From a virus, in the IMG/VR virus record IMGVR_UViG_3300028883_000036, positions 43,656-107,655 of that record: a stretch of DNA of 64,000 nt; one strand, 5' to 3'. Under the pieces are notes generated by a model. The model ran no database searches. It was given only the letters and a program-made list of their open reading frames with translations, and was not told the origin of the DNA. A program made the translations under genes and the position numbers. Position 1 is the first letter of the stretch. The number at the start of each line of letters is the position of its first letter. This document shows positions 18,498-62,194 of the stretch, one piece after another.

Positions 18498-18800
18498 TTA
18501 AGAATATCTTACTGCTCCATGAATATTTGTTGCCCATACATCACTAAATCTATAATTCACTGAACCTAAACTTCTTGTATCATCTACATCAGGACCATCA
18601 TCTACATTTCCACATAAAGGTCTTAACCACTTTGAATTATTATGAAAGAACATTTTATATCCCCCATATTGATCTGTAGCACCATTAATACTTGTAGACG
18701 TATTGTAAATTATTCTTCTTTCACTTGAAGCAGCAGCAGCAGGAGCAGATGCTTGTTCCATGAAATATTTTCCCTTCATTGTAATACCATGATTTTCCAT
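18498..18800 (-). CDS. Small tail-fibre-like virion protein
   Basis: PDVDDTRSLGSVNYRFSDVWATN resembles the P..D....LG....RW..lY fibre motif. Confidence 0.5.
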   Translation of the reverse strand: MENHGITMKGKYFMEQASAPAAAASSERRIIYNTSTSINGATDQYGGYKMFFHNNSKWLRPLCGNVDDGPDVDDTRSLGSVNYRFSDVWATNIHGAVRYS

Positions 18801-19138
18801 TATTTTTCCCCCTTATCAGATAATTTTCTTTCCAATTCTCTTTTCATATCTGATAAAAATGAATTGGATTCAAATAATTTAATTTTTATAGCTTCAAATT
18901 TCTTTTTATTTAATTTTTTTATTTTTTCCTCTATATCATTATTTTCAAATGTAAACCCAACTTTAGTTTTTCTACCTAATAATATATTTATATCATCCAT
19001 AATATTAATAACTTCATTTTTAATACCATATTTTTCTTCAATTTTATGAACTAGTTCTTCTTTGGAATTTTCAACAATTCCAACATTAAGTTTTCTAAAA
19101 TCTTCTATATCAGAATCTATGAATGATTTAAATTTCAT
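18800..19138 (-). CDS. Hypothetical protein with MKFKSFI leader
   Basis: 112-aa ORF; TATAAGTA late-promoter variant at 19153-19160. Confidence 0.6.
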   Translation of the reverse strand: MKFKSFIDSDIEDFRKLNVGIVENSKEELVHKIEEKYGIKNEVINIMDDINILLGRKTKVGFTFENNDIEEKIKKLNKKKFEAIKIKLFESNSFLSDMKRELERKLSDKGEK

Positions 19139-19164
19139 TATATGCCTAATAATACTTATATTTT

Positions 19165-21300
19165 TTATTCAATTACATCAAAATCTTCTATTGTAGCATT
19201 TAAATTATTATTAGCAGAATTATTATTTAAACCCCACACTTGAATATATCGTTGATTAGTAGCTGTCATATCTGCCGCATATTTAATATCTACATCTTTA
19301 ACTGTAACTCCTTCAAATGATCCTGTTTTTACAGTACCAGTTAATCTACCATAAGCAGGTGAACCACCATCATGATCAAAAAATAAACTAACATAATATT
19401 TTGTTCCTACAGAATATGCATATGAAGTTGATACCCCACCACCAGAAGAAGGATAATTTAATCTAATATTAAGATTACTACTTAAAATAGAAACTTCAAC
19501 ACCTGCAAAACCACCACTACCATGATAATTATTATATCCCCCTATATTAGTCGTTACACCAGCTAAAACACAAGCTAAAGTACCATCAACAGAAGATATT
19601 GTAAAAGAAAATTTTAATGTAAAATCACCAGTAAAATAACCTGCCCCTTTATCTAAATAAGCATATCCTTCACCTAAAGCATCAGCATCAGGACCAATAG
19701 TTGCTGTAGTAGATGTTAAAGATAATAAATTATTACTATCAACTTCTGTAAATGTAGTAAAATCAAGTCCAGCAGCAGCACTTGCACTTTCAGAGCTTGA
19801 ACTTGTAGAGCTTGAAGAACTTTCAGAGCTTGAAGATTTAGAGCTTGAAGATTTAGAGCTTGAACTTGAACTTCCAGAGCTTGAACTTGAAGATTCAGAG
19901 CTTGAACTTGAAGATTTAGAGCTTGAAGAACTTGAGCTTGAAGAACTATTTATACCATAAAGTTCAATTTCACCTATTTTAATTCCACTTGTTCCAGGTG
20001 TTAAAGTAGCAACATGTTCTATATCATCATATCTTACTTTAAACCATGTTCCACTTACAGCAACCCCACAAGTTTGATTAACTGGTATTGATCCTGTTGT
20101 TGCAAGAGATACATGAAATCCCCATTGTCCTTCTGCATATTGATGTAATGTTGGATTAACAACTGTTTTAACAAGAGTCCAATTAGAATTATTATCTGAA
20201 GTATAAAATTCAAATGTTCCTGCACTTGGAACCCATGCAGAAGGAATTAATGAATCATTTGTATTACCATAAACTTTAACTTTTGTTAGAGCTTGTTGTG
20301 AACCTAATTCTATACCATATGAATATTCATCTCTCCAATAAGTTCCAAAATCAATATATCTATTTTTATCTACTAATTTGCTTTCTTCAGTAGAAAAACT
20401 AGCTGAAGTTGGTGTACTATCAGGTTCTAATTTATATCCTTTCCATTCAGTAATTGGTTCACCTTTCAAACTACAAGAACTTGAACTACTACTTTTAGAG
20501 CTTGAACTTGAACTCAATGAACTTGAAGAAGAACTTGAACTCAATGAGCTTGAAGAAGAACTTGAACTCAATGAGCTTGAAGAAGAACTGGATGAACTTG
20601 ATATACTGATTGAATTACTGCTTGAGCTTGAGCTTGAACTCAATGAGCTTGAACTCAATGAGCTTGAACTGCTTGATTTTGAAGAAGAACTTTCAGATAA
20701 ACTTATAGAACTTGAGCTTGAAGAAGAACTACTAGCACATAAATAATCACCACTATTTAAAATAAAATTATCAAAATATGCAGTAATATTAGGTTTAACT
20801 GTCCAATTTTGTAAATAAATTCTAAATTCTACAGCATCCCTACCAATATCATTAGATTCTCCTACTTGGGACCAATTAAGACTTAAATTTTTATAATATC
20901 CTTGCCATGTTTTACCAATTCTTGTAATTCTAAATGCACCAGATGGAGCATTATTAGAAACAGCAGTTTGAGTTAAACTACCATCAATATATGATTGTTC
21001 AATATATGTAGTATTAGCACCACTTTGATAAATTCTTAATCTATTATCATCATCCCCGATGTATCTTGCTTCAAGAAATACTCCCCATCCACCAATTCCA
21101 TTATTTGCAGAAGGAGAAATATCCCAATCAACTTGAACATCAAAATCTCCACCTGAAATAATAGTTGCTCTATGTTGTAATAAAGAAGTATTTTTAGTAA
21201 AATTAACTTTGACAGTCAAATTATCACTACCACTAATAGCAGGAGTCCCTGCCGCCCCTTCTAATTTTACCCATCTATGTACATTAGGTTGTTGTGCCAT
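19165..21300 (-). CDS. Poly-serine multi-domain virion/fibre protein (ConA-like and discoidin-like beta domains)
   Basis: Three beta-rich domains separated by two long Ser tracts; middle domain IELG..ALTKVKVY..FEFYTSDNNSNWTLV..EIELYG is discoidin-like; first domain paralogous to one in 21311..23482. Confidence 0.65.
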   Translation of the reverse strand: MAQQPNVHRWVKLEGAAGTPAISGSDNLTVKVNFTKNTSLLQHRATIISGGDFDVQVDWDISPSANNGIGGWGVFLEARYIGDDDNRLRIYQSGANTTYIEQSYIDGSLTQTAVSNNAPSGAFRITRIGKTWQGYYKNLSLNWSQVGESNDIGRDAVEFRIYLQNWTVKPNITAYFDNFILNSGDYLCASSSSSSSSSISLSESSSSKSSSSSSLSSSSLSSSSSSSSNSISISSSSSSSSSSLSSSSSSSSLSSSSSSSSLSSSSSSKSSSSSSCSLKGEPITEWKGYKLEPDSTPTSASFSTEESKLVDKNRYIDFGTYWRDEYSYGIELGSQQALTKVKVYGNTNDSLIPSAWVPSAGTFEFYTSDNNSNWTLVKTVVNPTLHQYAEGQWGFHVSLATTGSIPVNQTCGVAVSGTWFKVRYDDIEHVATLTPGTSGIKIGEIELYGINSSSSSSSSSSKSSSSSSESSSSSSGSSSSSSKSSSSKSSSSESSSSSTSSSSESASAAAGLDFTTFTEVDSNNLLSLTSTTATIGPDADALGEGYAYLDKGAGYFTGDFTLKFSFTISSVDGTLACVLAGVTTNIGGYNNYHGSGGFAGVEVSILSSNLNIRLNYPSSGGGVSTSYAYSVGTKYYVSLFFDHDGGSPAYGRLTGTVKTGSFEGVTVKDVDIKYAADMTATNQRYIQVWGLNNNSANNNLNATIEDFDVIE

Positions 21301-21310
21301 TTTTTATTCC

Positions 21311-23482
21311 TTATCCACTCTCACTACTTGAACTAACTGAACTACTACTTGAACTTATAAAATAATCATTTATTCCAACATAACATGAAAATGATTCGCT
21401 TGAACTTTCAGAGCTTGAACTTTCAGAGCTTGAACTTTCAGAGCTTGAACTTTCAGAGCTTGAACTTTCAGAGCTTGAACTTTCAGAGCTTGAACTTTCA
21501 GAGCTTAAACTACTCAAACTGCTTGAACTTATAGAGCTACTACTTGAACTTATAGAGCTACTACTTGAACTTATAGAGCTACTACTTGAACTTATAGAAC
21601 TTGAGCTACTACTGCTTGAGCTACTTGAACTTGCTACACATGCCCAATTTCCAGAAACAAGAGTAAAATTATCAAATTCTCCATATGCATATGGTTTGTT
21701 AGTATAATTTTTAACATAAAGACCAAATTCTGTATCAATATTAGAACCAATATTAGTTCCACTTGCTATTTGTGACCATGTTCCACCAGTATTTCTATAA
21801 TATCCTTGCCATTGATTTCCTGTTCTTGCTATTCTAAATCCCCCACTTGTTTGAGTAGTACCAACAGCAGTATTTGTTACAACAACACCATTTTTATAAG
21901 TTGTTTCTACATAAGTTGTATTATGACCTTGAATATAAATTCTTAATCTATTATCATCATTATCTATTTCTCTAGCAACAAGTTCTAATATCCATCCAGC
22001 AGCAGACGGAGCAGGATTTTCAAGATATGGATTACTTGCTGATGGTAGATACCAATCTACTTGAGCATCAAAATCACTTCCTGATACAACATACCATCTA
22101 GAAATAACACCACTTATATTATTATCAAAATCTACTGATGCTTTTAATCTATTTCCACTTATAGTAGGTGAACTCATAACAATACCACTTCCACTTGGAT
22201 TACTTATAGTATAATCCCATTTATGTACATCTGGATCACTACCATCTATACCATCAAAATTATCATTTGGTGATACAAAACATGAACTACTTGAACTCTT
22301 TGAACTTGAACTTACAGAGCTACTAGATATAGAATCTGAACTACTGCTTATAGAACTTGAGCTTGAACTTACAGAACTTGAACTCAATGAACTTGAAGAA
22401 GAACTTACAGAGCTTGAAGAAGAAGAACTTTCAGAACTGCTTGAGCTTGAGCTTGATTCACTTGAGCTTGAAATTGAACTACTTGATTCTGAAGAAGAAC
22501 TCAAAGAACTTGAACTTTCAGAACTACTTGAAACTGAAGTTGAAGAACTTGATTCTGAAGAAGAAGAACTTGATTCTGAAGAAGAACTCAATGAACTTGA
22601 AGAAGAACTTGAAGAAGAACTTGAACTCAATGAGCTTGAAGAAGAACTTGAACTTGAACTCAATGAGCTTGAACTGCTTGAACTGAAAGAAACAGAACTA
22701 CTTGATTTTGAAGAAGAACTCACAGAAACAGAACTACTTGATTCAGAAATTGAACTTGAAGAACTTGTAGAACTTGAGCTTGAACTTATACTCAATGAAA
22801 ATGATTCACTTGAACTAGAAGAACTTTCAGAACTGCTTGAACTTTCAGAACTGCTTGAGCTTGAGCTTGATTCACTTGAACTTGAAATTGAACTGCTAGA
22901 TAGAGAACTTGAACTACTGCTTGAACTTGAACTAGAAGAACTTGAGCTTGAGCTTGAGCTTGAAGATGAAGAAATAAATCTTTCTTCAAGTAAATCTTGT
23001 AATTCAATTAAACAACTATTTTTATATTTTCTTTTTGCTCTTGCATCAGGACCAGGATCAGTTTGCACAACAATAGTACAATTAATAGGTTCATTTAAAA
23101 ATACAACAGCATTTCTACTACTACCAAAATAAATTCTTTTAAATTTAAATTCTTCTCTTGTTTCTGTTTTATATCCTGTTATCTGAACATATATTTGGTC
23201 TAAATAATGTGGTACTTCAATCCAATAAGTATCTCCTGATGGTGTCCAATCAGTTATAGTAAAACTAAAATGTTTATAAAAAACACCATCACCTGAAAAT
23301 ACAGGAAAAGCAGCATCTTTTAATGAATCAAATAAAGTAAATAATTGATTATTAGATATTACTTTATTAAATCTATTATTTGAATCATTTAATACAGCAA
23401 TATCCATTCCATGAGCACAACCGAATATATCACTTGAGCTTGAACTAGATGTTGATGATGATGAAGAACTTGAACTTGCCAT
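21311..23482 (-). CDS. Poly-serine virion protein with ConA-like domain
   Basis: About 230-aa central Ser tract plus N- and C-terminal tracts; DFDAQVDW...DDNRLRIY domain shared with 19165..21300. Confidence 0.65.
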   Translation of the reverse strand: MASSSSSSSSTSSSSSSDIFGCAHGMDIAVLNDSNNRFNKVISNNQLFTLFDSLKDAAFPVFSGDGVFYKHFSFTITDWTPSGDTYWIEVPHYLDQIYVQITGYKTETREEFKFKRIYFGSSRNAVVFLNEPINCTIVVQTDPGPDARAKRKYKNSCLIELQDLLEERFISSSSSSSSSSSSSSSSSSSSSSSLSSSSISSSSESSSSSSSSESSSSSESSSSSSESFSLSISSSSSSTSSSSSISESSSSVSVSSSSKSSSSVSFSSSSSSSLSSSSSSSSSSLSSSSSSSSSSSSLSSSSESSSSSSESSSSTSVSSSSESSSSLSSSSESSSSISSSSESSSSSSSSESSSSSSSVSSSSSSLSSSSVSSSSSSISSSSDSISSSSVSSSSKSSSSSCFVSPNDNFDGIDGSDPDVHKWDYTISNPSGSGIVMSSPTISGNRLKASVDFDNNISGVISRWYVVSGSDFDAQVDWYLPSASNPYLENPAPSAAGWILELVAREIDNDDNRLRIYIQGHNTTYVETTYKNGVVVTNTAVGTTQTSGGFRIARTGNQWQGYYRNTGGTWSQIASGTNIGSNIDTEFGLYVKNYTNKPYAYGEFDNFTLVSGNWACVASSSSSSSSSSSSISSSSSSISSSSSSISSSSSSISSSSLSSLSSESSSSESSSSESSSSESSSSESSSSESSSSESSSESFSCYVGINDYFISSSSSSVSSSSESG
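21399..21504. repeat. 15-nt tandem repeat encoding (SSSES)n
   Basis: About 7 copies of cttgaactttcagag. Confidence 0.85.
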
Positions 23483-34312: not shown

Positions 34313-34691
34313 TTTTTATCCTCTTTGGGTTTATTTTAATAGAATCTATCTTTCTATCTTTATTTATCTTTAATTGTTTGCATTTTTTAGAATTTTCAGT
34401 AATTAATATGCATTCTGTTTCTTCTTTTGCTTTTTTATTATATAAAATGATATGTTTTTTCTTTTTATAATATTCTTTATTATATTTCTTTATTGCATTT
34501 TTATTATTCTTCTTCCATTTTTCATTACATTTCTGTTGTATTAATTTTCCTTTTTGAGAAGATTTATATTTTTTGGTAATTTTTCTCATACAATCCCTAC
34601 AATATATATTTTTACCATCAGGATTAGATGTTTTTTTACCAAACTTCCCAATTTTTCTATTTCTACCACAACATTTACATATCTTCTTCAT
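34293..34691 (-). CDS. Zn-finger basic protein resembling the N-terminus of an HNH/EndoVII homing endonuclease, no nuclease domain seen
   Basis: CKCC...F.K....DG...YCRDC followed by a Lys-rich helix. Confidence 0.55.
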   Translation of the reverse strand: MKKICKCCGRNRKIGKFGKKTSNPDGKNIYCRDCMRKITKKYKSSQKGKLIQQKCNEKWKKNNKNAIKKYNKEYYKKKKHIILYNKKAKEETECILITENSKKCKQLKINKDRKIDSIKINPKRIKNGNSIL

Positions 34692-34842
34692 TTTTTTTAT
34701 GTTTCTTTTTTCTACTATATTTTGATTTATCTTTAAAAAATTGACTACCTTTAGCAGTAGGAATTCTTAATGCTTTCTTTTGATCTAAAGTATCTCTTTT
34801 TTTCTTTTTAGCTTCAGGTAAATATTTATCTATCAAATTCAT
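34675..34842 (-). CDS. 55-aa basic peptide with MNLIDKYLPE leader and ArfA-like YxRKxKH motif (not in ORF track)
   Basis: MNLIDKYLPEAKKKKRDTLDQKKALRIPTAKGSQFFKDKSKYSRKKKHKKNEEDM; GGAG upstream; starts 2 nt after the cca stop. Confidence 0.75.
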   Translation of the reverse strand: MNLIDKYLPEAKKKKRDTLDQKKALRIPTAKGSQFFKDKSKYSRKKKHKKNEEDM

Positions 34843-34843: not shown

Positions 34844-36274
34844 CTAAACTCCTGTTATCTTTTTGATATATTTTTCAATTTCTTCTTTGTCTTCTATATC
34901 ATGGTCCATTATCCATTCTGTAGTTTGAGTTATTATCTTTCCAATTTTAGGTCCAGGTTTTAATCCTGTCCATTTTATTACATCTTTACCATCCACCAAT
35001 TTAATCTGTTTATTGAGTTGTTTAGCACCAAACTTTTCTTTAACCTTAACGGCTTTATCAACAATTTTTTCAAATTCTCCTGCATGACTAAACATATGTC
35101 CTCTTGCATATTCATCAGCTTTTCCAACACTAACCAATACATCCCAATTATTATCAGAAACAAGTTTAGCTATTTTAGAAGGTTTCATATCAAGAATCTT
35201 ATGAAACTTCATATGATTTCCAACTGCAAATATAAGAGCATCTTTTTCTTTATTACTCATTCTTAATCTATCAGCTATAGCATTCACTAAATCAATTGAT
35301 TTCCTAGCATGACCAAGATATTTGGGTAATCCTTTATCATGAGACAAAGTTATACCTTTACCTACATCGTGTAAAAGTATAGCCAAATTTTTAATCGGAT
35401 CAGCAGAATCACTCTTTTTAAGTGCTGCCATGACATGACTATATACTGTACCACCTTGCCCCCTTGTTTCTGGATGATGTTGTAAATTTTCTCTATACCA
35501 TTTCAAATTAACTATTTCAGGTAATATATGTTTAAGAAGTTTTAACTTATCCAACATATCAATATATTTTGCAAATTTATCTCCACTCTGAGAAGCAGAT
35601 TTCATCAATTCATCTTTAATTCTTTCAGGTGCAAGTCCTGTTATATTATGAGCTAATTTTTGTGCTGCTTTACTTGTATTTTTATCAACCTCAAAATCAA
35701 GTTTAGCTGCAAATCTTGCAAGTCTCATCATCCTCAAATAATCCTCACCAAACCGCTTGTAAGGATCACCAACAGTTTTTAAAACTTTATCTTTGATATC
35801 CCTCTTACCATCAAAATAATCTACAATTTCACCCTTAGAATTGATTCCCATTGCATTTATAGTAAAATCTCTCCTTTCAACATCCTCTTTAAACTTTCCT
35901 GTTATTGTAACCGATTCTGGTCTTCTACCATCAAAATAAGTTCCATCATTTCTAAACTGAGCTATTTCAAAATCATATCCACCTTGTTTCACAACTACAA
36001 TTCCAAAACTTTTTGATTTACCTATATCATATGTTTTAAACATAGTAGATAATTCATCCATAGGCATATTAGTTGCTATATCAACATCATGAGGTTTTAA
36101 ATTACCTAATACAATATCTCTTACACTTCCACCTACTATATAAGCCTTATATTTCTTCTTATTTATCTTATTTAGTATATCAACAGCTACTTTTAATTCT
36201 TTATTTCTTCTTATATAAGATTGCCAATCTTGTAATTTTTCTTTTGCTTCATTCAAATATCTTGTTAGTCTCAT
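34844..36274 (-). CDS. cca: Class II tRNA nucleotidyltransferase (CCA-adding) with HD domain
   Basis: VGGSVRD, DVDIAT, EDVERRDFTINAM, RFGEDYLRMMRLARF, ERIKDE, HHPE..H..LLHDVGK..GHA HD domain. Confidence 0.93.
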   Translation of the reverse strand: MRLTRYLNEAKEKLQDWQSYIRRNKELKVAVDILNKINKKKYKAYIVGGSVRDIVLGNLKPHDVDIATNMPMDELSTMFKTYDIGKSKSFGIVVVKQGGYDFEIAQFRNDGTYFDGRRPESVTITGKFKEDVERRDFTINAMGINSKGEIVDYFDGKRDIKDKVLKTVGDPYKRFGEDYLRMMRLARFAAKLDFEVDKNTSKAAQKLAHNITGLAPERIKDELMKSASQSGDKFAKYIDMLDKLKLLKHILPEIVNLKWYRENLQHHPETRGQGGTVYSHVMAALKKSDSADPIKNLAILLHDVGKGITLSHDKGLPKYLGHARKSIDLVNAIADRLRMSNKEKDALIFAVGNHMKFHKILDMKPSKIAKLVSDNNWDVLVSVGKADEYARGHMFSHAGEFEKIVDKAVKVKEKFGAKQLNKQIKLVDGKDVIKWTGLKPGPKIGKIITQTTEWIMDHDIEDKEEIEKYIKKITGV

Positions 36275-36693
36275 TATATATACCCATATTTTTTTGCATT
36301 TTTTATTGATTTATTAGACATAGCAACAGGAATTTTTTTCATACCTAAATCTCTTAATACAGCATATCTATGTCTTCCATTTCCAAAAGATATTCTACCA
36401 ATATCATCAATATCAACAGAAGAAACTATAATATTTCCTTCAGGAGATTCACCTAACCATCTTTTTCTTTCATCTTCTGGTTTTTCTATAATTTCTTTAA
36501 ACATTTTATATCTACCACCAATAGCATTCCCACTTCCACCTTTACCAATATAAAAATTTTTATCCCTTGACCATTCTTTATCAAATTTATTAACAATTAC
36601 TTTTACAATTTTTCTATCAGTTTCAAATTTAGCCTTTTCAAATTTTAAAGACTTCAAATCAATTCCTTCATTCAAATATCTTTTAAATTTCAT
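36274..36693 (-). CDS. ParB/Srx-like domain protein with MKFKRYLNE leader
   Basis: ISFGNGRHRYAVLRDLGMKKIPV. Confidence 0.65.
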   Translation of the reverse strand: MKFKRYLNEGIDLKSLKFEKAKFETDRKIVKVIVNKFDKEWSRDKNFYIGKGGSGNAIGGRYKMFKEIIEKPEDERKRWLGESPEGNIIVSSVDIDDIGRISFGNGRHRYAVLRDLGMKKIPVAMSNKSIKNAKKYGYI

Positions 36694-40408: not shown

Positions 40409-40726
40409 TTACCTTAAATCTATAGTTTTACCACAATGAGGACAAACAATTCCTTTATTATGCCCTTGTCTTCCTCTACCACCATGAGGATGAGCAGTAG
40501 TATAAGCCATCACACCATCTTCAGATTCCATGATACCTTCATCAAATTCAAATATAATATTACCTTCAGAATCTCTTATAAGCATCTTATCCATTTTCTT
40601 CTTATATATTACTTGATTTTTTTTAGCTGTATCAATTGATTTAAAAAATACATTATCAATAGTATCTACAGGTTTATAAGTAGCTTTCCTATTTAAATAT
40701 TTTTCCATTTTTTCTTGTGTATTCAT
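40409..40726 (-). CDS. Hypothetical protein with KYLN leader and C-terminal CPHCG
   Basis: MNTQEKMEKYLN; VCPHCGK. Confidence 0.65.
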   Translation of the reverse strand: MNTQEKMEKYLNRKATYKPVDTIDNVFFKSIDTAKKNQVIYKKKMDKMLIRDSEGNIIFEFDEGIMESEDGVMAYTTAHPHGGRGRQGHNKGIVCPHCGKTIDLR

Positions 40727-40775: not shown

Positions 40776-40783
40776 TATTTATA
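40776..40783 (-). promoter_or_regulatory. T4-type late promoter TATAAATA
   Basis: Exact TATAAATA upstream of the baseplate operon, just downstream of a terminator. Confidence 0.6.
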
Positions 40784-40800: not shown

Positions 40801-40853
40801 AAAAGAAAAAGAAAAAGAAAAAGAAAAAAGGGGAGATGCTTGGCATCCCCCCC
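40801..40853 (-). terminator. Rho-independent terminator
   Basis: GGGGGGATGC-CAA-GCATCTCCCC 10-bp stem followed by repeated U5-6 tracts. Confidence 0.8.
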
Positions 40854-40920
40854 TTAACTAAAAGGAGTCAAAATAAAACTATAATTATAATCTTATCTTA
40901 ACAAAGGAAAACATAAAAAA

Positions 40921-42973: not shown

Positions 42974-43282
42974 CTAACAAATATCTGTAACTAAAATTTT
43001 TGTGCAATGATTTGTGATATCACCATCATTTCTATGTATTTCCCAATAAAGATCATATTCAGCAGCACTAGCTGTTATCGTTTGAGTTACTGTTGTCCAT
43101 ATTTGATTTTTATAAACTCTTGCAGCAGAACGTGAAACTAAAACATTATCTTTTATAGACCCTTTAATTTGATAATAAGCACCAGAAGGATAAAAAGCTT
43201 CTCCTGTACTTCTATTCCATACATTTAATTGTACAGTAGACTTATTATTTCTGCTTAATTCTATATATGTTTTGTCTGCCAT
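42974..43282 (-). CDS. Small Ig/BppU-like virion protein
   Basis: Beta-rich, T..A.EYDLYWEI pattern; structural context. Confidence 0.5.
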   Translation of the reverse strand: MADKTYIELSRNNKSTVQLNVWNRSTGEAFYPSGAYYQIKGSIKDNVLVSRSAARVYKNQIWTTVTQTITASAAEYDLYWEIHRNDGDITNHCTKILVTDIC

Positions 43283-43785
43283 TATTTTTTCCTTTTAGTT
43301 TTTTTCTTTTTTCTAAATGTTATAGCTTTCTTAAATTTACTTAGTAAAGCTGTTGTTATTTTCTTACTAAAATCTTTCGAAAATGTTGATACAACTACTT
43401 TTTCTATATTATCAAATGGTATTTCTTCTAAATTTCTTATATAATAATTAGGTTTAAAAAAATATCTTCTTATAGCTGGTTTTAAATATGGATATTTTGA
43501 TATAACCTTTCTCCATGTAAATTTTATATTTCCTGATCTATCTAATTCTTTCATCCATATCTTTAAAAATCTTTTTCTTTGTGCTCTTGGAATATAAGTA
43601 AAATTGATACATTGAAATATTCTCCATTGATGCCCTGAATTTTGATGAATACCTTCTATAGATGCCATAAAAATTACAGTAGGTTTTGGATCATGTTCCC
43701 AAGCTTGATATTTAAATCTATAAAAATGACCTGAACGTAGAGCAACACCTTTAAACTTCTTTCTATAAATATGTCTTAAAGCCAT
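43282..43785 (-). CDS. DNA end protector gp2-like
   Basis: GHFYRFKY...D.KP.VI, INFTYIP..QR, YPYLKPAIRRY. Confidence 0.75.
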   Translation of the reverse strand: MALRHIYRKKFKGVALRSGHFYRFKYQAWEHDPKPTVIFMASIEGIHQNSGHQWRIFQCINFTYIPRAQRKRFLKIWMKELDRSGNIKFTWRKVISKYPYLKPAIRRYFFKPNYYIRNLEEIPFDNIEKVVVSTFSKDFSKKITTALLSKFKKAITFRKKKKTKRKK

Positions 43786-44055
43786 TTATTTCATCCAATC
43801 TATTATTTGATTAACTGTACCTTGCCCACCAATTATATACTTTCCATATGTATTAATTAATTTTTTAACTTTCTTTTTATCACCTTTTTTCATTGCCCAT
43901 GAAACATTAGCAGTTATTTCCCCTTCTTTACCTTTCATTACTTTAGCAATTTGTTCTAATGCATCAGCAAGACTACTTTTATCATATTTAGAAGAATCAA
44001 ATTTCATATTAGGAATATATTTGGCTTCACCTATATATTTTTCTATTAAATCCAT
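43786..44055 (-). CDS. Small head/internal-type protein, leader MDLIEKYIGE
   Basis: Shared N-terminal leader family. Confidence 0.65.
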   Translation of the reverse strand: MDLIEKYIGEAKYIPNMKFDSSKYDKSSLADALEQIAKVMKGKEGEITANVSWAMKKGDKKKVKKLINTYGKYIIGGQGTVNQIIDWMK

Positions 44056-44056: not shown

Positions 44057-44344
44057 TTATTTTCCTAACCCTTTTATGATTTCTTTAGGTGAAGCATTAA
44101 GATATTTTGCTGATTTTAATGATTTATTTATCGCCTTTTTAATATCATTAAAAAGAATTCCATAAACTTTATTATAATCTTTTATATCACCAAATGTAGA
44201 ATATTCCAAAGGAAGTAATTTTTCTAATTGAGAAATAGCAATTCTCTTTTCACCCATTATCGCTCTTGTCATAGCATCAGCAACACCATTTACATTAGAT
44301 GATGATTCATTTAATTTCAAATCAATCTTTTCCATTATATTCAT
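44057..44344 (-). CDS. Small head/internal-type protein, leader MNIMEKIDLKLNE
   Basis: AAGGAG RBS plus leader nearly identical to that of 44384..44659. Confidence 0.7.
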   Translation of the reverse strand: MNIMEKIDLKLNESSSNVNGVADAMTRAIMGEKRIAISQLEKLLPLEYSTFGDIKDYNKVYGILFNDIKKAINKSLKSAKYLNASPKEIIKGLGK

Positions 44345-44673
44345 ATCAATTCTCCTTACTAAATTCATTTATTTAATCTAATCTTATTGCATTCTTTTAT
44401 ATTCAATTAACATAGTACGAACAGCATCAATATATCTAATAATTGCTTGACTCATATTTGATTTATCTCTATTATAATCCAAATCGCTTATCATAGATGT
44501 TCCACCAACAATATCTTCCATTTTTTCTATTTCTTTACTAATGTTACTAGTTATTTTATTAAATTCTTTTGATTTTTTTATAAGATCATTAAAATTACGT
44601 TCCAATCCACTTACATTAGCTTCATTTAATTTTAAATCAATCTTTTCCATTAAATCCATATCAATTCTCCTTA
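44306..44673. repeat. Duplicated 53-nt RBS-plus-leader cassette
   Basis: 44306-44358 vs 44621-44673: 50 of 53 nt identical; identity ends exactly after the ..LNE codon. Confidence 0.9.
44384..44659 (-). CDS. Small head/internal-type protein, leader MDLMEKIDLKLNE
   Basis: AAGGAG RBS; shared leader. Confidence 0.7.
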   Translation of the reverse strand: MDLMEKIDLKLNEANVSGLERNFNDLIKKSKEFNKITSNISKEIEKMEDIVGGTSMISDLDYNRDKSNMSQAIIRYIDAVRTMLIEYKRMQ

Positions 44674-44955
44674 TTAAACAAAATTCCAAACTTGTCCTTG
44701 ACCAGCTTTAAATTCATCTATTTCATCAGAATCTTCAAGTTCCATTTCTTTCTTAACTCCTGCAAAATGACCTTCAGCATTAGTACCAGCAAGACTAATA
44801 TAATCATCACCAAATAATGCTTCTACTCTATCTCCTGGTCTAAAATCCCCCCACCAATTTAAAAATTGAATTGGTCTTGTTCCATCAACCATATCCCCTT
44901 TTACATATGTTTCAGACACAAACATATCTAATTTTTTTAATAATTCATCTCCCAT
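44674..44955 (-). CDS. Small protein, leader MGDELLKKLDMFVSE
   Basis: GGAG RBS; leader variant. Confidence 0.65.
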   Translation of the reverse strand: MGDELLKKLDMFVSETYVKGDMVDGTRPIQFLNWWGDFRPGDRVEALFGDDYISLAGTNAEGHFAGVKKEMELEDSDEIDEFKAGQGQVWNFV

Positions 44956-44965: not shown

Positions 44966-45394
44966 TTATTTATTTAGCCATTCTTTATGATTATCAGGAT
45001 CAATATAACCTTTAATTTTCATTACGACTGATGTTAAATAATCCCATTTATCCATTTCTGTATTAAAATTAAATTTTCCCCATCCTGCTATACTAATTTT
45101 ATCTTTTGTTAAATTAATAATATGTTTATCAGAAAATATATTAGGTATTCTCTTATTCAATTCTTTTTTTATATCTTTTCTATATTCACTCCATCCTTTA
45201 TCAGTACTCAAATTATATTTACTTAATTTTATACTCTTTAAAGCATCACTAACTTTTTTATAATAATCAGTTTCAGATTTTACAGTTTCTTTATATTCTT
45301 TCTTTTTATTTCCTTCTAATTTATCATAAATTTGTTTTCTTTTTCTATTTCTACCAAATATATCTTCACATAAATATTTATCTATTAAATTCAT
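44966..45394 (-). CDS. Small protein, leader MNLIDKYLCE
   Basis: Shared leader. Confidence 0.7.
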   Translation of the reverse strand: MNLIDKYLCEDIFGRNRKRKQIYDKLEGNKKKEYKETVKSETDYYKKVSDALKSIKLSKYNLSTDKGWSEYRKDIKKELNKRIPNIFSDKHIINLTKDKISIAGWGKFNFNTEMDKWDYLTSVVMKIKGYIDPDNHKEWLNK

Positions 45395-45443
45395 AATCTA
45401 TTTTCCATTTATTTAATATTACCAAATAACTTTTAAATCTCAT
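45378..45443 (-). pseudogene. Leader-only 21-aa ORF MRFKSYLVILNKWKIDYEFNR (possible cassette remnant)
   Basis: ATGA overlap with gp4 stop; begins like MKFKRYLNE / MKFKSFI. Confidence 0.35.
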
Positions 45444-45889
45444 TTATTATTCCTAAATAAATCCTTTTCTGTTAATATTATAAATTCATAACCAAGTTTT
45501 TTACAATACATTTTTGCTGCTTTAAATTTTGCTTGATTAGTAAGAAATGTAGTTTCTCTCATCATCATTGTTTTTTTACTTTTCCCACCTTTTTTTCTTG
45601 GCATTCTTAAATCTTTTTCTGGTTTTACTTCTATAATAAACTTCTTTCTATTTTTAAACATTACATAAAAATCAGGATAATATATTCTATTTTTACCTTT
45701 AAGACCATCAAAATAAGGTATTCTATGTCCCTCACTTGACCATTCTAAAACTTGTTTGTTATAATCAAGCCACTGACATACTTTATATTCCCATGAAGAT
45801 CTACATACTATTGGATATGTTCCACAATATTTTTCAGTATATTCTGGTATATATTCACGTTCATTTTTATTTCTTTTGTATTTCTTCAT
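45440..45889 (-). CDS. Head completion nuclease gp4-like (TnsA-type PD-(D/E)xK)
   Basis: KY.G..PIVCRSSWE, WSSE..IPY, YYPDFY, IIEVKP, NQAKFKAA, LTEKDL. Confidence 0.92.
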   Translation of the reverse strand: MKKYKRNKNEREYIPEYTEKYCGTYPIVCRSSWEYKVCQWLDYNKQVLEWSSEGHRIPYFDGLKGKNRIYYPDFYVMFKNRKKFIIEVKPEKDLRMPRKKGGKSKKTMMMRETTFLTNQAKFKAAKMYCKKLGYEFIILTEKDLFRNNK

Positions 45890-46315
45890 CTACATAAATT
45901 TTCTAATTCTCTTTCCTCTTGCAGTTTTACCTTGAGATACTTTTCTTTTCTTCATTCTATTCCATTGTTTATATTTAGTGGTTCTTCTGAATTTTTTAGC
46001 TTTCAATTTTAAAGCTGCTCTATTCCTTCTATATTCCATTCTTCTTTTTCTTTTATCAGAAGGTTTGATTTTAACTTTTCTTGCTGTTACAGCTTCTTCA
46101 ACATCATCATCAAAAATATTATCAATGTTATCATCTGCAATTTGATCAATTATTTCTGTCAATTCTTCAACTTGATCTTCAGAAAGATTATCAGTATTAA
46201 GATTAATAATAAATTCCATCATTTTATTCATCATTGAAACATCTTCTTCAGGATAGTATTCATCAGAATCTTTATCATTTAGGTAATCTTCAAGTTTTTT
46301 CTGAATATCACTCAT
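45890..46315 (-). CDS. Prohead core-like protein (gp68-like), acidic N-terminus and basic C-terminus
   Basis: Acidic half ending VEE, then an Arg/Lys-rich half; paralog of 46648..47106. Confidence 0.55.
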   Translation of the reverse strand: MSDIQKKLEDYLNDKDSDEYYPEEDVSMMNKMMEFIINLNTDNLSEDQVEELTEIIDQIADDNIDNIFDDDVEEAVTARKVKIKPSDKRKRRMEYRRNRAALKLKAKKFRRTTKYKQWNRMKKRKVSQGKTARGKRIRKFM

Positions 46316-46339: not shown

Positions 46340-46603
46340 TTAATCATCATATCCATATACCTTCCCACCTTTTTTCTTCTTTGTTTCTCCTGATGCATTC
46401 CATTTTTTATCTACCTCATTAAAAAAATCATCTTGTTTATTTTTGGGAAGATCTTTATAGCTTTTTACTTTCCATTTCTTTAACATTTTTTTAAAGAACT
46501 CATCATATTCTTTACCACCAACTTTTCTTTTAGCTTCTAATACTCTATCTAACCTATTTTCTATTTTATCAATTTGTGATTCAATTTTATCTATAATTCT
46601 CAT
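46340..46603 (-). CDS. Small head-associated protein
   Basis: YDEFFKKMLKKW...L...Q.DFFNEVDKKW motif I associate with T4-like phage head proteins. Confidence 0.55.
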   Translation of the reverse strand: MRIIDKIESQIDKIENRLDRVLEAKRKVGGKEYDEFFKKMLKKWKVKSYKDLPKNKQDDFFNEVDKKWNASGETKKKKGGKVYGYDD

Positions 46604-46647: not shown

Positions 46648-47106
46648 TTAGTTATTTCTATCACTTCTCTTTCTTACATGATATTTAACTTTTCTTCTTC
46701 CTGTAGATGTTCTTCCTTGACTTTCTAATCTTTCTTTAGTTCTTAATCTTTTCCTACCTTCAGAACTTCTTTTTAATCTTTCTTTCCTTTTTTTAATTTG
46801 TGTTTTATTTGTACTATACCATTTTTTTGATGCTTGATTTTTAGTTGAAGTTGACATTCTAGCAAGTTTAGGATTTCCTTCTTCCTGTATATCTTCAACT
46901 TCAACTTCAAGTTTTTCTATCATATCTATTACTTCTTCAATTTGAGAATCAGTTAATTTATCTGGTTCAAGATTAATTATAAAATTTGCCATTTTTGAAA
47001 ATATTTTTTCATCAAATGAAAAACTAGTATCCACCTTAGTCTTTCCTTTAGGTAATATATTATTCTCTTGTTCAAGAATATCATCTATCTTATCAAATAA
47101 ATTCAT
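46648..47106 (-). CDS. Prohead core-like protein, leader MNLFDKIDDILEQE
   Basis: KM.NFIINL.PD.L.D.Q.EE shared with 45890..46315; basic C-terminus. Confidence 0.55.
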   Translation of the reverse strand: MNLFDKIDDILEQENNILPKGKTKVDTSFSFDEKIFSKMANFIINLEPDKLTDSQIEEVIDMIEKLEVEVEDIQEEGNPKLARMSTSTKNQASKKWYSTNKTQIKKRKERLKRSSEGRKRLRTKERLESQGRTSTGRRKVKYHVRKRSDRNN

Positions 47107-47108: not shown

Positions 47109-47822
47109 CTAACCCCAAAAATAATCAAAAAAATCTTCTTCATCGACTTTAGCAAGTCTCATAAATGTATCAGCTACATTCATATCAATAACCTTTTTCT
47201 TAACTGAAGATTCACATTTATTCATTTTCTGTTTCATATTTTTTAACCAAAATGACATTTCTCTAAATGCAGTATCTTCATTTGATTCACTTACCATTTC
47301 TAATGCTTCTTTTACAGGACTTTTTTTCTTTTTATCTTTCTTTTTCTTATCACCTTTTTTAGCAACCTTTAATTCATATTCATCACCATCATCTTCATCT
47401 TCTTCAGGTGGTAATTCTTCTTCAGGTGGTGCTTCTTCATCAGTAGGTGGTGGTCCATTTCCTTGCCCATCTAATACATCTCTTACTCTTGATTCTTGTT
47501 TCTCAAATGCAGGTAAAACTTGACCCTTTCTATCAACAGCATTAACAATAGCTCTTAATGCCATTATAAATTCAGAATATTCTTTAGACATATCAGCTAA
47601 AAGTTGATGAGCTTTTTTAACAAACATTGGATTATCTTCAACAGCTATAATTTGATCTTCTAAGCTATCAATAAATTCTTCAATTCTATCATCCAATTCA
47701 TGAAGCTTATTAAGCATTTTTTTATTTTTACCATTTTTTTTAGTATCGTCATTCTTTTTTTTAGTATCATTATTTTTTTTCTTAACTGCTTCATTTAAAA
47801 TTTTTCTAAGATGTTCTCCCAT
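47109..47822 (-). CDS. Acidic/Pro-rich scaffold- or core-like protein
   Basis: MGEHLRKILNE leader; PPPTDEEAPPEEELPPEEDEDD. Confidence 0.55.
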   Translation of the reverse strand: MGEHLRKILNEAVKKKNNDTKKKNDDTKKNGKNKKMLNKLHELDDRIEEFIDSLEDQIIAVEDNPMFVKKAHQLLADMSKEYSEFIMALRAIVNAVDRKGQVLPAFEKQESRVRDVLDGQGNGPPPTDEEAPPEEELPPEEDEDDGDEYELKVAKKGDKKKKDKKKKSPVKEALEMVSESNEDTAFREMSFWLKNMKQKMNKCESSVKKKVIDMNVADTFMRLAKVDEEDFFDYFWG

Positions 47823-47824: not shown

Positions 47825-48124
47825 TTATCTCCTTTCCATTTCTTCAGCATCCTTATTAATAGATTCTAAATGCTTTGAAATAGAATCATCCATTTTTTCA
47901 TATGCTATTGATATTGAATCTCTCATCTTTTTATATTTAGGATTTACAACTTTTTTTCCTTGCATCATCAATCCCATAGCTTTCATATAATACTGACTAA
48001 ATTCATTAAATGCATTTCTCAATGAATATACTCCTTCTCTATACATTTGAATTTTCTTATCATCACTTGATTCATAAATTTTATCATCAATTAAATATTT
48101 TTCAATTTTCCTCATATTCATCAC
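47825..48124 (-). CDS. Small protein, leader KIEKYLIDDKIYE
   Basis: Shared leader. Confidence 0.65.
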   Translation of the reverse strand: MMNMRKIEKYLIDDKIYESSDDKKIQMYREGVYSLRNAFNEFSQYYMKAMGLMMQGKKVVNPKYKKMRDSISIAYEKMDDSISKHLESINKDAEEMERR

Positions 48125-48327
48125 ATAATCCCCCCATCAATTAATTTCATTACTTGTTCTCTTATATCTTTATCCAATATAGAAAGAATTTTATCTTTAT
48201 CATTAGATTTTTTAATAATTTCAATTATATCTTCTAAATCTCTACCCATATTTAAAGATAAAGAAATAGCATCTTTTTTTTCTTGTATTGATAAATATCC
48301 ATCAATTTTTTCTAAAAGTAATTTCAT
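48121..48327 (-). CDS. Small protein, leader MKLLLEKIDGYLSIQE
   Basis: First gene after a late promoter. Confidence 0.65.
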   Translation of the reverse strand: MKLLLEKIDGYLSIQEKKDAISLSLNMGRDLEDIIEIIKKSNDKDKILSILDKDIREQVMKLIDGGIM

Positions 48328-48886: not shown

Positions 48887-48895
48887 TGGCGAATT

Positions 48896-49324: not shown

Positions 49325-49334
49325 GGAGAATATC

Positions 49335-49999: not shown

Positions 50000-50371
50000 A
50001 TGAATTTAATAGATAAATACTTAGGAGAAGGATATTCACAAAATACACCATCAGAAATAATAACAGCTATACAAAGAAAAGGGAAAAAAATAGCAAATGA
50101 TCCCTTTGATATTAATAAAGCATATTTTAATTTAGATGGAACTGTATATAAAGCAGGAGTTGGTAAAGGTGTTGTCAATATGGGAGACATAAAAAGTTTT
50201 ATTAAAAAGGTAAAAACTGGAAAATTAAAAGCTAAATTAGTTGAAGGTAAAACATCATCAACACAAATGCAATGCATGGAATGTGGTCATAAATTCAAAA
50301 AGAAATTAGGAAGAAATACATTTGAAGTGAAATGTCCGAAGTGTAAAGGATATGATACTGAACCAGTATAA
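50000..50371 (+). CDS. Zn-ribbon protein with MNLIDKYLGE leader
   Basis: CMECGHKF...KCPKCKG. Confidence 0.75.
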   Translation: MNLIDKYLGEGYSQNTPSEIITAIQRKGKKIANDPFDINKAYFNLDGTVYKAGVGKGVVNMGDIKSFIKKVKTGKLKAKLVEGKTSSTQMQCMECGHKFKKKLGRNTFEVKCPKCKGYDTEPV

Positions 50372-50384: not shown

Positions 50385-50579
50385 ATGAATAAAATAGAAA
50401 AATACTTAAATGAAGGTAAAAATGATTATATTGTTACTTCTTATGGAACTATAATCAATATAAAAAATGGATATAAATTTGCTGATGAAAATGAATTAAC
50501 TGAAATACAAAAAAAATTCGGTAAAATTGCTAAAGAATGTAAAATAAAAATAGGAAGAATAGATATCACACCAAAATAG
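50385..50579 (+). CDS. Small protein, leader MNKIEKYLNE
   Basis: GGAG RBS before ATG 50385. Confidence 0.7.
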   Translation: MNKIEKYLNEGKNDYIVTSYGTIINIKNGYKFADENELTEIQKKFGKIAKECKIKIGRIDITPK

Positions 50580-50587: not shown

Positions 50588-50953
50588 ATGAGATATTTCA
50601 GATATTTAACAGAAGAAAATGTTATATCAAAAGCATTAAATCTTCCAGAACCTAAAGTTGGTGGTGATTATCCCCCTGAAAAGGTTAAAAGATATATAAA
50701 AATAATTGAAGATGCTTTAGCAGCAATGGCAAATAAAGAAGAAAGTGAATCTAATGATGCTATTGTATCTGATTTAAGAGATAAAAAAAGTAAATGGAAA
50801 AATGTAAATAAAGAAACAAAACCAACTAAAACTAAATTGGAAGTTCCCCCTGATCAAGAAGAAGAACCACCACCTGAACAGGAAGAACCACCACAAAAAA
50901 AAGAAGAACCAAAAGAAAGTAAAATTGAGAAAATGTTTAGAAAAATGCTCTAA
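50588..50953 (+). CDS. Small protein, leader MRYFRYLTEE, Glu/Pro-rich tail
   Basis: GGAG RBS; leader. Confidence 0.7.
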   Translation: MRYFRYLTEENVISKALNLPEPKVGGDYPPEKVKRYIKIIEDALAAMANKEESESNDAIVSDLRDKKSKWKNVNKETKPTKTKLEVPPDQEEEPPPEQEEPPQKKEEPKESKIEKMFRKML

Positions 50954-58622: not shown

Positions 58623-58624
58623 TT

Positions 58625-60505: not shown

Positions 60506-60549
60506 ATTACCCCAATAAAAAGTTATTAATATCACAAAAACATAAATCT

Positions 60550-61056
60550 TTATTTTTTATTACCTTTTCTCCAAGAAGTCGAACCTTTAGCAGTATCTAT
60601 AAGCCTTGCACAAAACCCTTTAGCTTTATCCTCATCCCATCCTGATTTGCCTTTCATTCTTATCACACATTTATCAAAAAATCCATGTTCTTTAGGATCT
60701 GCACCAATTGTTTTACCAAATTTTTCTACTGATTTTTTCCCCCATCCAGCAGCTTCAATTGCTTTTTCATTCAACTCATCATCATTAAGAAATTCATTAG
60801 TTTCACGAATAAGATTTTCAACTTCCAATTTATCTAAAATATCTAATTCTTCTGATTCAGGAACCATTCTAATAAATCTTGGATTTCTACCCGCTTTTAC
60901 TGCTTTTTTTATTCTTTTTTCAGCTTCTTGTTTTGTATATCTTTTTCCTTTATCATCAAATTTAGCATCATCTAAACTCATCCAATCATGAGTAATACCT
61001 TTTATTTCTACTCTATATTTTTTTTGTTCATTTAAATATTTATCTTCTTTATTCAT
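60550..61056 (-). CDS. Head/internal-type protein, leader MNKEDKYLNE
   Basis: Several internal LxE sites; C-terminal FFDKC..M......A.GFCA motif. Confidence 0.65.
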   Translation of the reverse strand: MNKEDKYLNEQKKYRVEIKGITHDWMSLDDAKFDDKGKRYTKQEAEKRIKKAVKAGRNPRFIRMVPESEELDILDKLEVENLIRETNEFLNDDELNEKAIEAAGWGKKSVEKFGKTIGADPKEHGFFDKCVIRMKGKSGWDEDKAKGFCARLIDTAKGSTSWRKGNKK

Positions 61057-61447
61057 CTTTCCCCCATAGTTCAGGTATATAAGCACCTGATTTTTTATCG
61101 AATTTTAATCCTTTTCTTCCTAATATATTAGTTTCTGTTGGATTATCGAATTCATCTTCTATGGGTTCTTTTCTTGCTAAATCAATAATATCCCTTTTAG
61201 TAGTAAAACCTGTTCTTGTTTGACCAGAACCAATAATATTAGTAGTAGTGTTAGAAACATAAGAACCACCAACTACAGAAGATTCATTTTTTATAGGAAC
61301 ACATACTTTCTTTACTTTATCATATATAGTACCTTTAGGACATTTACCACCAATTACATCTATACTTCCTTTAGCAGTATTAGTAGCTACATCTCCTGCT
61401 ACAGTCATATCAGATATCATAATGTCTAATTTTTTTAATAAGTCCAT
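61049..61447 (-). CDS. Protein with leader MDLLKKLDIMISD and CPKG..Y......CVP motif
   Basis: KCPKGTIYDKVKKVCVP. Confidence 0.7.
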   Translation of the reverse strand: MDLLKKLDIMISDMTVAGDVATNTAKGSIDVIGGKCPKGTIYDKVKKVCVPIKNESSVVGGSYVSNTTTNIIGSGQTRTGFTTKRDIIDLARKEPIEDEFDNPTETNILGRKGLKFDKKSGAYIPELWGKDE

Positions 61448-61449
61448 AA

Positions 61450-61929
61450 TTATCCCATTTTAGAATCAACTTTCACATTAGAAAGTTTTCCTTTCGGTAA
61501 ATGACCATTTTTAACATGAGAAGCAATCATATCTTCAAATTTTTTCTTTGCTGCTTTTTCATCATTACCAACTACAGGTAATGTGACTTTTTTCTTACCA
61601 GCACTACCAGCATCAAAAATACCTGAAAAATTAAAAATTGATTCATTTATATCTTCTTTCATTCCTTTAGCTGTATTCCAAATTTTTTTCATATCAGAAT
61701 CAATATATTTCAGAAAATCTTTCGATTTCATTCCTTTTGTAGGCACCATAGCATGACCAATATATTCTCTACTATTTAAATCTCTAAATTGAATTTTAAC
61801 TTCTTTATTTCCTGGTTTCCATAATACCTCTACTTGAGTTTTTTTATCCATCATTCTATTAGATATACCCATATCATTATACCATTTAGTTTCATTTATA
61901 ACACCATCAATTTTTTCTGTTATATCCAT
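61450..61929 (-). CDS. Protein with leader MDITEKIDGVINE
   Basis: Two small domains, each preceded by INE. Confidence 0.7.
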   Translation of the reverse strand: MDITEKIDGVINETKWYNDMGISNRMMDKKTQVEVLWKPGNKEVKIQFRDLNSREYIGHAMVPTKGMKSKDFLKYIDSDMKKIWNTAKGMKEDINESIFNFSGIFDAGSAGKKKVTLPVVGNDEKAAKKKFEDMIASHVKNGHLPKGKLSNVKVDSKMG

Positions 61930-61939
61930 TACTTCCCCC

Positions 61940-62194
61940 CTATGCCTTTACCTTTCTAAATCCCCAATCAAACATTCCAATTTGCATCATCATTTTTTGA
62001 GCATCATTTTTTTTATCAAATTTAACTGTTAATGAATTTTTGGCTTTATCAATAATTTTAAATCCTTTACGAATAGTTTTATTAAGCCAATCTTCTAAAT
62101 GTTTTTGATCATTTTTAGGAACATCCACTTGTAAAGCCATTTCATTCATATCATCTTCTTGTAATATAAAATCAATTTTATCTGTTATGTCCAT
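61940..62194 (-). CDS. Protein with leader MDITDKIDFILQE
   Basis: Shared leader; GGGGGA RBS. Confidence 0.7.
   Translation of the reverse strand: MDITDKIDFILQEDDMNEMALQVDVPKNDQKHLEDWLNKTIRKGFKIIDKAKNSLTVKFDKKNDAQKMMMQIGMFDWGFRKVKA

Follow-up and report, generated by a model that had tools for sequence, protein, structure and literature searches.

Between 16 and 22 open reading frames (ORFs) in a 64-kb stretch of viral DNA start with variants of one short peptide, hereafter the leader, whose regular form ends in [LI]-x-Glu and is followed by unrelated sequences, hereafter the payloads. The stretch that was analysed, called the window below, comprises bases 43656-107655 (the final 64 kb) of a single 107,655-bp IMG/VR viral contig, IMGVR_UViG_3300028883_000036 (27% GC; completeness ~51% according to CheckV), and has a GC content of 25-30%. 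Judged by its genes, the phage is a distant, uncultured myovirus of the T4 superfamily, since its DNA polymerase is only ~28% identical, at best, to that of any GenBank phage. In T4, the protease gp21 cleaves after L/I-x-E, and the first 10 residues of internal protein III (IPIII) are enough for packaging (PMC9026906). The shared N-terminal peptides described here are probably capsid-targeting propeptides of the T4 type, which would belong to an unusually expanded internal-protein system with a new consensus.

A sequence-only reading of the window had reported more than 20 ORFs with such a leader and had compared them with the capsid-targeting sequence (CTS) of T4. All the N-termini that it listed are present at their coordinates, and the T4 sequence was quoted correctly, ipII and ipIII both starting with MKTYQEFIAE. 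Its count has to be graded: 16 leaders are solid, and the number exceeds 20 only when 6 loose ones are included.

Enrichment and anatomy of the leader

We searched the six frames of the 107.6-kb contig with the pattern M.{3,4}[DE]K[YI][LID] and obtained 15 matches. Fourteen of them are located at most 11 codons from a gene start and the remaining one falls in a non-coding frame; gene interiors contain none. By comparison, 0.29 N-terminal matches (maximum 3) are expected when residues 2-30 of every protein are shuffled and 0.94 when whole proteins are shuffled, while Markov-1 simulated genomes give 1.8 matches over six frames (maximum 4). The motif is about 50-fold more frequent than in shuffled sequences, i.e. 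clearly enriched over the AT-rich background. In an unbiased comparison of the tripeptides of the first 20 residues with the remaining proteome, the highest ranks were taken by EKI, KID, EKY, DKY, YLN, KYL and MEK, each of them being modestly enriched when taken singly (p ~1e-3 to 1e-4).

Naming each ORF by the coordinate of its start, the solid leaders are those of 34842, 36274, 36693, 44055, 44344, 44659, 45394, 47106, 48115, 48327, 50000, 50385, 50588, 61056, 61929 and 62194, and the loose ones those of 47822, 46315, 46603, 44955, 61447 and 40708. All 22 are confined to positions 34.6-62.3 kb, where they represent 22 of 45 ORFs vs. none of the 121 ORFs on the rest of the contig (Fisher test, 3e-15). 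They sit in the structural part of the contig and are absent from the 35 small ORFs of a plus-strand array at 12-27 kb of the contig. One further ORF, at 18800-19138 (MKFKSFIDSD...), was considered as a member and rejected as doubtful, having no Glu at the right place.

The leaders fall into three dialects, all starting at the initiator Met. Dialect A has 9 residues (MRLTRYLNE, MKFKRYLNE, MRYFRYLTE; consensus M[KR]xx[KR][YF][LI]xE, in short MxxxRYLxE), with Y or F two residues ahead of x-E. Dialect B has 10 residues (MNLIDKYL[PCG]E, MDLIEKYIGE, MNKIEKYLNE, MNKEDKYLNE; consensus MxL[IV][DE]KYLxE), with I or V at position 4, Y at 7, L or I at 8 and E at 10. Dialect C has 13-16 residues (MDITEKIDGVINE, MDITDKIDFILQE, M..MEKIDLKLNE, MNLFDKIDDILEQE, MKLLLEKIDGYLSIQE; consensus [DE]KI[DQ]xx[LIY]..[LI]xE, in short [DE]KIDxx[LI]xE). 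For the 18 solid or near-solid leaders taken together, the length is 9-10 residues in nine cases, 11-16 in eight and 23 in one. Counted from the putative cut, the last residue (P1) is E in 18 of 18 leaders and P3 is L, I or V in 17 of 18, while the residue that follows (P1') is A, G, S or T in 12 of 18 vs. 22% at internal [LI]xE sites (p 5e-5). In addition, the leaders are amphipathic, with a helical hydrophobic moment of 1.85 vs. 0.90 at other N-termini (p 1e-8).

The signal acts at the protein level, because every leader Met has a separate Shine-Dalgarno sequence ahead of it, upstream DNA shows no conservation, the leader codons vary and no DNA of the cluster is repeated apart from the leader-coding stretch. 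This stretch is A-rich after the ATG. Mobile regulatory cassettes of the PeSL type or flanking DNA repeats (PMC2839356) were also considered as the cause and rejected, since the leader-coding stretch is the sole repeated DNA. Within the cluster, we noted a direct repeat of 58 nt with 93% identity (44306-44363 and 44621-44678), which spans the Shine-Dalgarno sequence and the leader of two neighbouring genes whose payloads differ. Cassettes could be exchanged by recombination at such leader-coding stretches.

Head modules and leader exchange in related contigs

The lineage encodes a gp21-type protease. In a relative whose polymerase is 60% identical (G5), a Peptidase_S77 gene and a leader cluster syntenic with ours are carried by one 34.6-kb contig. 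The protease of the lineage shares 39% identity with T4 gp21 in an alignment that matches up their His and Ser motifs, and the major capsid protein (MCP) of the lineage is homologous to gp23 from residue 7 onward. An exact placing of the T4 gp23 cleavage site on this MCP was tried and rejected; the N-termini are homologous, and a cut at ...FLME followed by T is only a guess because the site lies in a gapped region. The head proteins of the lineage begin in the same style as the leader-bearing ORFs, with MKLITE... for gp21, MDKLLEMLGVQKLEE... for the scaffold and M.IRDLVKKWDAVLKEG... for the MCP.

With the G5 protease as query, 40 related head modules were retrieved, in which the gene order according to PHROGs is portal, protease, scaffold and major head protein. 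The slot between portal and scaffold contains from 0 to 9 small orphan ORFs, whose number and content differ among contigs. In these 40 modules, 40 of the 81 small ORFs of the slot are leader-positive vs. 21 of the 407 found elsewhere in the same loci (Fisher test, 4e-21, a value that is optimistic since the regular expressions for dialects A-C were composed after the data had been seen). When internal Met residues are used as a control, 0-0.6% of them score as leaders, and the motif did not occur at any of 591 internal Mets. The slot is empty in some relatives, as it is in cyanophage S-PM2, which has the closest cultured gp21 (48% identical) and a compact arrangement. We also observed a conserved ORF of ~66 residues (...ALDHFENDEFVDAKEI...) between portal and gp21 in most head modules (L067-L104, e.g. 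L074:9782-9985), which may be the counterpart of T4 gp67 judging by its position ahead of gp21 and its acidic tail. In another module, the gp21 protease is ~70 residues longer at its C-terminus (L075:9998-10819).

The leader recurs in relatives and moves between genes. A hidden Markov model (HMM) built from the 10-residue leaders of the window alone has its best matches in relatives at the N-terminus in ~15 of 19 cases. A more distant genome (G2) has a dialect of its own, MR[LF]KQYINE. Moreover, leaders are swapped on one and the same payload: the 50588 payload and its orthologues follow a type A leader in the majority of genomes but a type B leader, MLIEKYLGE, in two of them. Turnover of whole cassettes is seen in six syntenic genomes (G0, G1, G5, L006, L008 and L011), whose conserved backbone includes homologues of gp4 and gp2. 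Around this backbone, each of the six has ORFs of 82-142 residues with a type B leader and unrelated payloads. In the window, the backbone genes are a gp4-type head-completion (head closure) protein gene (45440..45889 (-); phrog_218, E 2e-44) and a homologue of the gp2-type DNA-end protector gene (43282..43785 (-); phrog_429, E 4e-8), both without a leader. The main cluster surrounds these two genes and adjoins baseplate genes of the gp53, gp5 and gp27 types.

Among 209 kb of other distant T4-like contigs, 3 of 205 ORFs (1.5%) are leader-positive, all of them on one 4.5-kb IMG/VR contig (L046; polymerase ~25% identical). Its proteins of 325, 224 and 220 residues start with MRANEFLSE, MRAIEFINE and MRATEFITE, a dialect (MRAxEF[LI]xE) close to the T4 CTS MKTYQEFIAE. 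These sequences suggest that tags of the CTS type are common throughout the T4 superfamily. Among the dialects, type A appears to be ancestral, and since type A leaders, the L046 dialect and the T4 sequence resemble each other, the CTS would be ancient in the superfamily and not a speciality of T-even phages. A search of IMG/VR with the exact DNA pattern of the type B leader found four short contigs only, and protein-based searches for loci were used instead.

Leader-bearing ORFs and neighbouring genes

The first leader-bearing ORF lies in the baseplate operon (34675..34842 (-), 55 residues); it has a type B leader (MNLIDKYLPE then A) and a highly basic payload with a weak match to DUF7230. 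In the next one (34844..36274 (-)), a type A leader (MRLTRYLNE then A) is fused to a class II CCA-adding tRNA nucleotidyltransferase of 476 residues. The matches of this enzyme to PHROG 2244 and Pfam PolyA_pol begin only at residue 41-44, and its leader is kept in three genomes (G0, G1 and G2), the orthologues of G1 and G2 starting with MRFTRYLTE and MRLTQYINE. The third (36274..36693 (-), type A, MKFKRYLNE then G, 139 residues) has a payload whose predicted fold is near ParB-N/Srx-like folds (ESM Atlas neighbour, TM-score 0.66-0.70), which is a lead only. GmrSD, which the T4 internal proteins target, likewise has a ParB-N-like N-terminal domain (PMC12373910). A loose candidate follows at 40409..40708 (-); it begins with MEKYLNRK, without Glu, and its G1 orthologue with MKIEKIEKYLDKK.

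The main cluster opens with an orphan variable cassette of type B (43786..44055 (-), MDLIEKYIGE then A, 89 residues). The adjacent type C ORF at 44057..44344 (-) (MNIMEKIDLKLNE then S, 95 residues) carries one copy of the 58-nt leader duplication. Its payload is homologous to the C-terminal extension of gp21 in L075 (38% over 60 residues, E 8e-7) and to a small head-slot ORF upstream of gp21 in L073. Another type C ORF (44384..44659 (-), MDLMEKIDLKLNE then A, 91 residues) is followed by a loose leader on a conserved family, fam8 (44674..44955 (-), MGDELLKKLDMFVSE then T, 93 residues), and by a second orphan variable cassette of type B (44966..45394 (-), MNLIDKYLCE then D, 142 residues). Beyond the gp4 homologue, the ORF at 45890..46315 (-) has a loose leader with Asp for Glu (MSDIQKKLEDYLND, 141 residues; orthologues end in ...YL[KNQT]E) and is a paralogue of the type C ORF at 46648..47106 (-) (MNLFDKIDDILEQE then N, 152 residues, conserved family fam1). 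Between them lies a loose long leader (46340..46603 (-), MRIIDKIESQIDKIENRLDRVLE then A, 87 residues). The ORF at 47109..47822 (-), also of loose grade (MGEHLRKILNE then A), encodes 237 residues that are Lys-rich and predicted to be disordered; within the leader, its orthologues conserve only ...L[NL]E then A or G. It is followed by a type B leader with Asp (47825..48115 (-), MRKIEKYLIDDKIYE then S, 96 residues) and by the first gene of the leftward cluster, of type C (48121..48327 (-), MKLLLEKIDGYLSIQE then K, 68 residues).

Three leader-bearing ORFs are read in the other direction: a type B protein of 123 residues with a C-terminal zinc-ribbon (50000..50371 (+), MNLIDKYLGE then G), a type B orphan of 64 residues (50385..50579 (+), MNKIEKYLNE then G) and a type A protein of 121 residues (50588..50953 (+), MRYFRYLTE then E). 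The last group comprises a type B ORF (60550..61056 (-), MNKEDKYLNE then Q, 168 residues), a loose leader (61049..61447 (-), MDLLKKLDIMISD, 132 residues; orthologues begin with MDIVNKIDKLLGD) and two type C orphans (61450..61929 (-), MDITEKIDGVINE then T, 159 residues; 61940..62194 (-), MDITDKIDFILQE then D, 84 residues).

In an all-against-all BLAST of the trimmed payloads, a single related pair was found among the 22 (46315/47106), so that the payloads are, that pair apart, as unrelated as the sequence-only reading had described them. Searches of Pfam, PHROGs and the ESM Atlas left nearly all payloads as orphans, the leads being the CCA-adding enzyme, the zinc ribbon and the ParB-N-like fold, and gave nothing for the 237-residue Lys-rich protein (47822). 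The payloads are net basic and rich in Lys (16.1% vs. 10.8%, p 8e-6, with a control set that contains some spurious ORFs), and none has a transmembrane-like segment. Lysines of T4 internal proteins contact DNA (PMC3012670).

The leader-bearing ORFs are interspersed among gp4, gp2 and baseplate genes and have the same orientation as these. The late-promoter motif TATAAATA precedes both the cluster (48343, 16 nt upstream of the first gene) and the hub operon (40783). A scan for sigma-70-type promoters and terminators was uninformative, except for one strong intrinsic terminator at 40827-40855 (-), the sole strong one in 33.5-51.5 kb. It is followed by the TATAAATA motif at 40783 (-) ahead of the baseplate-hub operon, and together they likely mark the boundary between two leftward transcription units.

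The window also encodes a gp43-type DNA polymerase (50937-53627), gp6 (32209-33921), a gp25-like wedge protein (33935-34312), gp5 (37415-38683), a gp27-like hub protein (38692-40011) and a gp53-like wedge protein (40013-40399). The nuclease gp47/gp46 is fused (14794-17979), the SbcD-like gp47 and SbcC-like gp46 homologues being joined in a single ORF of 1061 residues. Three genes without a leader (131, 142 and 217 residues) lie at 48491-49988 (+) and match PHROGs 1501 and 6637, of unknown function; the 217-residue protein has a hydrophobic, Gly-rich N-terminus, and the trio also adjoins the leader clusters of G1 and G5. Poly-serine runs occur at or near the N-terminus of large, presumably structural proteins (21311-23482, 24843-25721 and 41864-42844), and poly-Ser proteins of a similar kind are present in the same two relatives. 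Finally, the ORF at 11868-12920 contains ...YILGFIAADG..., which resembles the LAGLIDADG homing-endonuclease motif.

Interpretation and comparison with known systems

By analogy with T4, the leader would form an amphipathic helix of 9-16 residues by which each freshly synthesised protein attaches to the scaffolding core during prohead assembly. A serine protease of the gp21 type would then cut after the terminal [LI]-x-Glu, the mature and mostly Lys-rich payload would be kept beside the DNA inside the head, and ejection would carry some or all of the payload set into the next host cell. The three dialects would all do this job. The tag being short and portable, new payloads could therefore be recruited and exchanged as cassettes. 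The T4-like targeting proposed in the sequence-only reading agrees with every point that can be examined in silico. The least certain part of this scheme is how many of the 16-22 proteins might be injected effectors as opposed to degradable parts of the core, and an anti-defence role of the payloads is pure inference.

Several points weigh against this interpretation, in addition to the post hoc composition of the dialect patterns and the imperfect control set for charge. The sequence-only reading had looked to a gp21-like protease encoded elsewhere in the genome; such a protease is present in the lineage, but no Peptidase_S77 gene was found on this ~51%-complete contig, and the link between protease and leader is therefore made through relatives only. 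The lineage has no cultured member, and packaging, cleavage and injection are what we infer from the T4 precedent. The leaders of 46315, 48115 and 61447 have Asp in place of the terminal Glu; in T4, Asp at position 10 stops processing and leaves targeting unaffected (PMC9026906). The TATAAATA motif is not enriched in this AT-rich genome (48 observed vs. ~64 expected), so that late expression is suggested only by the operon context. Furthermore, about half of the leader families of the window are conserved throughout the lineage, a pattern equally compatible with structural core proteins and with effectors.

This last point leads to the strongest alternative, in which the leader-bearing proteins are accessories of the prohead core or scaffold, like T4 gp67, gp68 and gp22; they would be targeted to the core, then degraded by the protease and expelled, without any enlarged injected proteome. 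It differs from T4-type targeting of internal proteins only in the fate and role of the payloads. All T4 core proteins likewise start with a short L/I-x-E peptide, many leader-bearing ORFs are located between gp21 and the scaffold, about half of the families are conserved, and several payloads are charged, helical or disordered. However, the tagged payloads include the 476-residue CCA-adding enzyme, whose leader is kept in three genomes, as well as a protein with a zinc ribbon and one with a predicted ParB-N-like fold, and unrelated orphans in variable slots form the pattern of accessory effectors rather than of assembly parts. The slot is also empty in some relatives and in S-PM2, and its contents are therefore dispensable for head assembly. 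We regard this alternative as unlikely.

A function unrelated to the capsid is more improbable still. The shared N-terminus could be a tag for binding a host or phage factor, a degron or a feature of translation initiation on the mRNA; the evidence that places the proteins in heads is indirect, some leader-bearing ORFs are near replication genes (50.0-50.95 kb, beside the DNA polymerase, and 60.5-62.2 kb), and A-rich codons after the ATG are common in highly expressed genes of AT-rich genomes. Against this, conservation is at the protein level, and dialects that differ in codons and length are swapped on one payload. What never varies is [LI]-x-E with a small residue after it, the association with the gp21/scaffold slot is strong, bona fide head proteins start with similar peptides, and no leader is carried by the contig's other 121 ORFs, whose composition is the same. 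That the motif merely reflects the codon usage of AT-rich DNA (Lys, Ile, Tyr, Leu, Asn, Asp and Glu being frequent at 25-30% GC, with single tripeptides modestly enriched) or results from recent gene duplication (one leader pair being the 58-nt repeat) can be dismissed, as it is refuted by the shuffle and positional controls (14 matches vs. 0.29, none internal), and the payloads are unrelated, the upstream DNA is unconserved, the HMM trained on the window matches N-termini in relatives in ~15 of 19 cases, and 1.5% of the ORFs in distant T4-like contigs are leader-positive.

If the leaders are capsid-targeting propeptides, a bolder proposition can be put forward tentatively, with odds that we would place below even: at least 20 tagged proteins, including a complete CCA-adding enzyme for tRNA repair and a ParB-N-like protein, might be packed and injected, an injected proteome on the scale of jumbo phages, under a three-dialect tag descended from the T4 CTS; this tag might offer a handle for reading first-strike and anti-defence proteins from metagenomes across the T4 superfamily. 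Host defences encounter injected internal proteins before any other phage product, and each of the three T4 internal proteins has proved to inhibit GmrSD restriction enzymes specifically (PMC12373910). Provided that the tag functions as its T4 counterpart does, the leader-bearing ORFs of uncultured T4-like phages could be listed from sequence alone, which would yield many candidates for anti-defence and takeover proteins, sorted in advance. If the CCA-adding enzyme is packaged, this would suggest that tRNA repair is delivered as soon as infection begins.

The closest known system is that of the T4 internal proteins. In ipII and ipIII, MKTYQEFIAE is followed by A, while ipI has a longer leader ending in ITE then A. 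In the T4 CTS, residues 4 and 7 play a part in targeting and residues 8 and 10 in processing (PMC9026906). As in IPI, IPII and IPIII, the tag described here has ~10 residues, begins at the Met, and has hydrophobic or aromatic residues at 4 and 7, Leu or Ile at 8 and Glu at 10, followed by Ala, Gly or Ser (PMC9026906); the payloads are likewise unrelated, small and Lys-rich. T4 ipI lies ~2 kb from genes 2, 4, 53 and 5, and the leader-bearing genes are similarly outside the head module and near genes 2, 4, 53 and 5, with a gp21 homologue in the lineage. Unlike in T4, the consensus is MNLIDKYLxE, MxxxRYLxE or [DE]KIDxxLxE instead of MKTYQEFIAE, i.e. three interchangeable dialects, and 16-22 ORFs are putatively tagged in half a genome, whereas T4 has three. 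In addition, one tag is on a large CCA-adding enzyme, and tagged ORFs also occupy the head-module slot.

The internal proteins (Ips) of T-even phages are diverse, with the CTS as their only common part (PMC3012670). The signal sequence has allowed at least 10 of them to be identified, and Ip1-3 block GmrSD type IV restriction enzymes, a different one in each case (PMC12373910). The T-even Ip loci share with ours the turnover of cassettes, with a constant leader and unrelated payloads at syntenic positions (PMC3012670, PMC12373910). They differ in that our lineage comes from environmental metagenomes, has a larger scale per genome and has no payload homologous to a T-even Ip. Literature searches, limited to the searchable library, found no paper describing CTS families outside the T-even phages.

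Two further groups of peptides are comparable. The N-termini of T4 prohead-core proteins end in L/I-x-E (MEGLIE in gp67, MLLIPE in gp68, MNEPQLLIE in gp21, MLKEQLIAE in gp22 and MAKINELLRE in gp24), so that, as here, a short N-terminal peptide ends in L/I-x-E at residues 6-10. These propeptides belong to single conserved structural genes, whereas here a portable tag is found on many unrelated payloads. In the giant phages phiKZ, 201phi2-1 and SPN3US, ~19 or more head proteins are cut after Glu by a distant gp21 homologue, as would be the case here, and the cleavage yields a large packaged and ejected proteome (PMC9026906). Unlike the leaders of the window, their sites are S/A-x-E, their propeptides are long and without a short common N-terminal tag, and the phage group and capsid size differ. 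The kind of system is already established through the T4 CTS and the T-even Ip cassettes (PMC3012670, PMC9026906, PMC12373910), and what is new is the lineage, the three-dialect consensus, the number of tagged ORFs per genome, the occupation of the head-module slot and the tagged CCA-adding enzyme.

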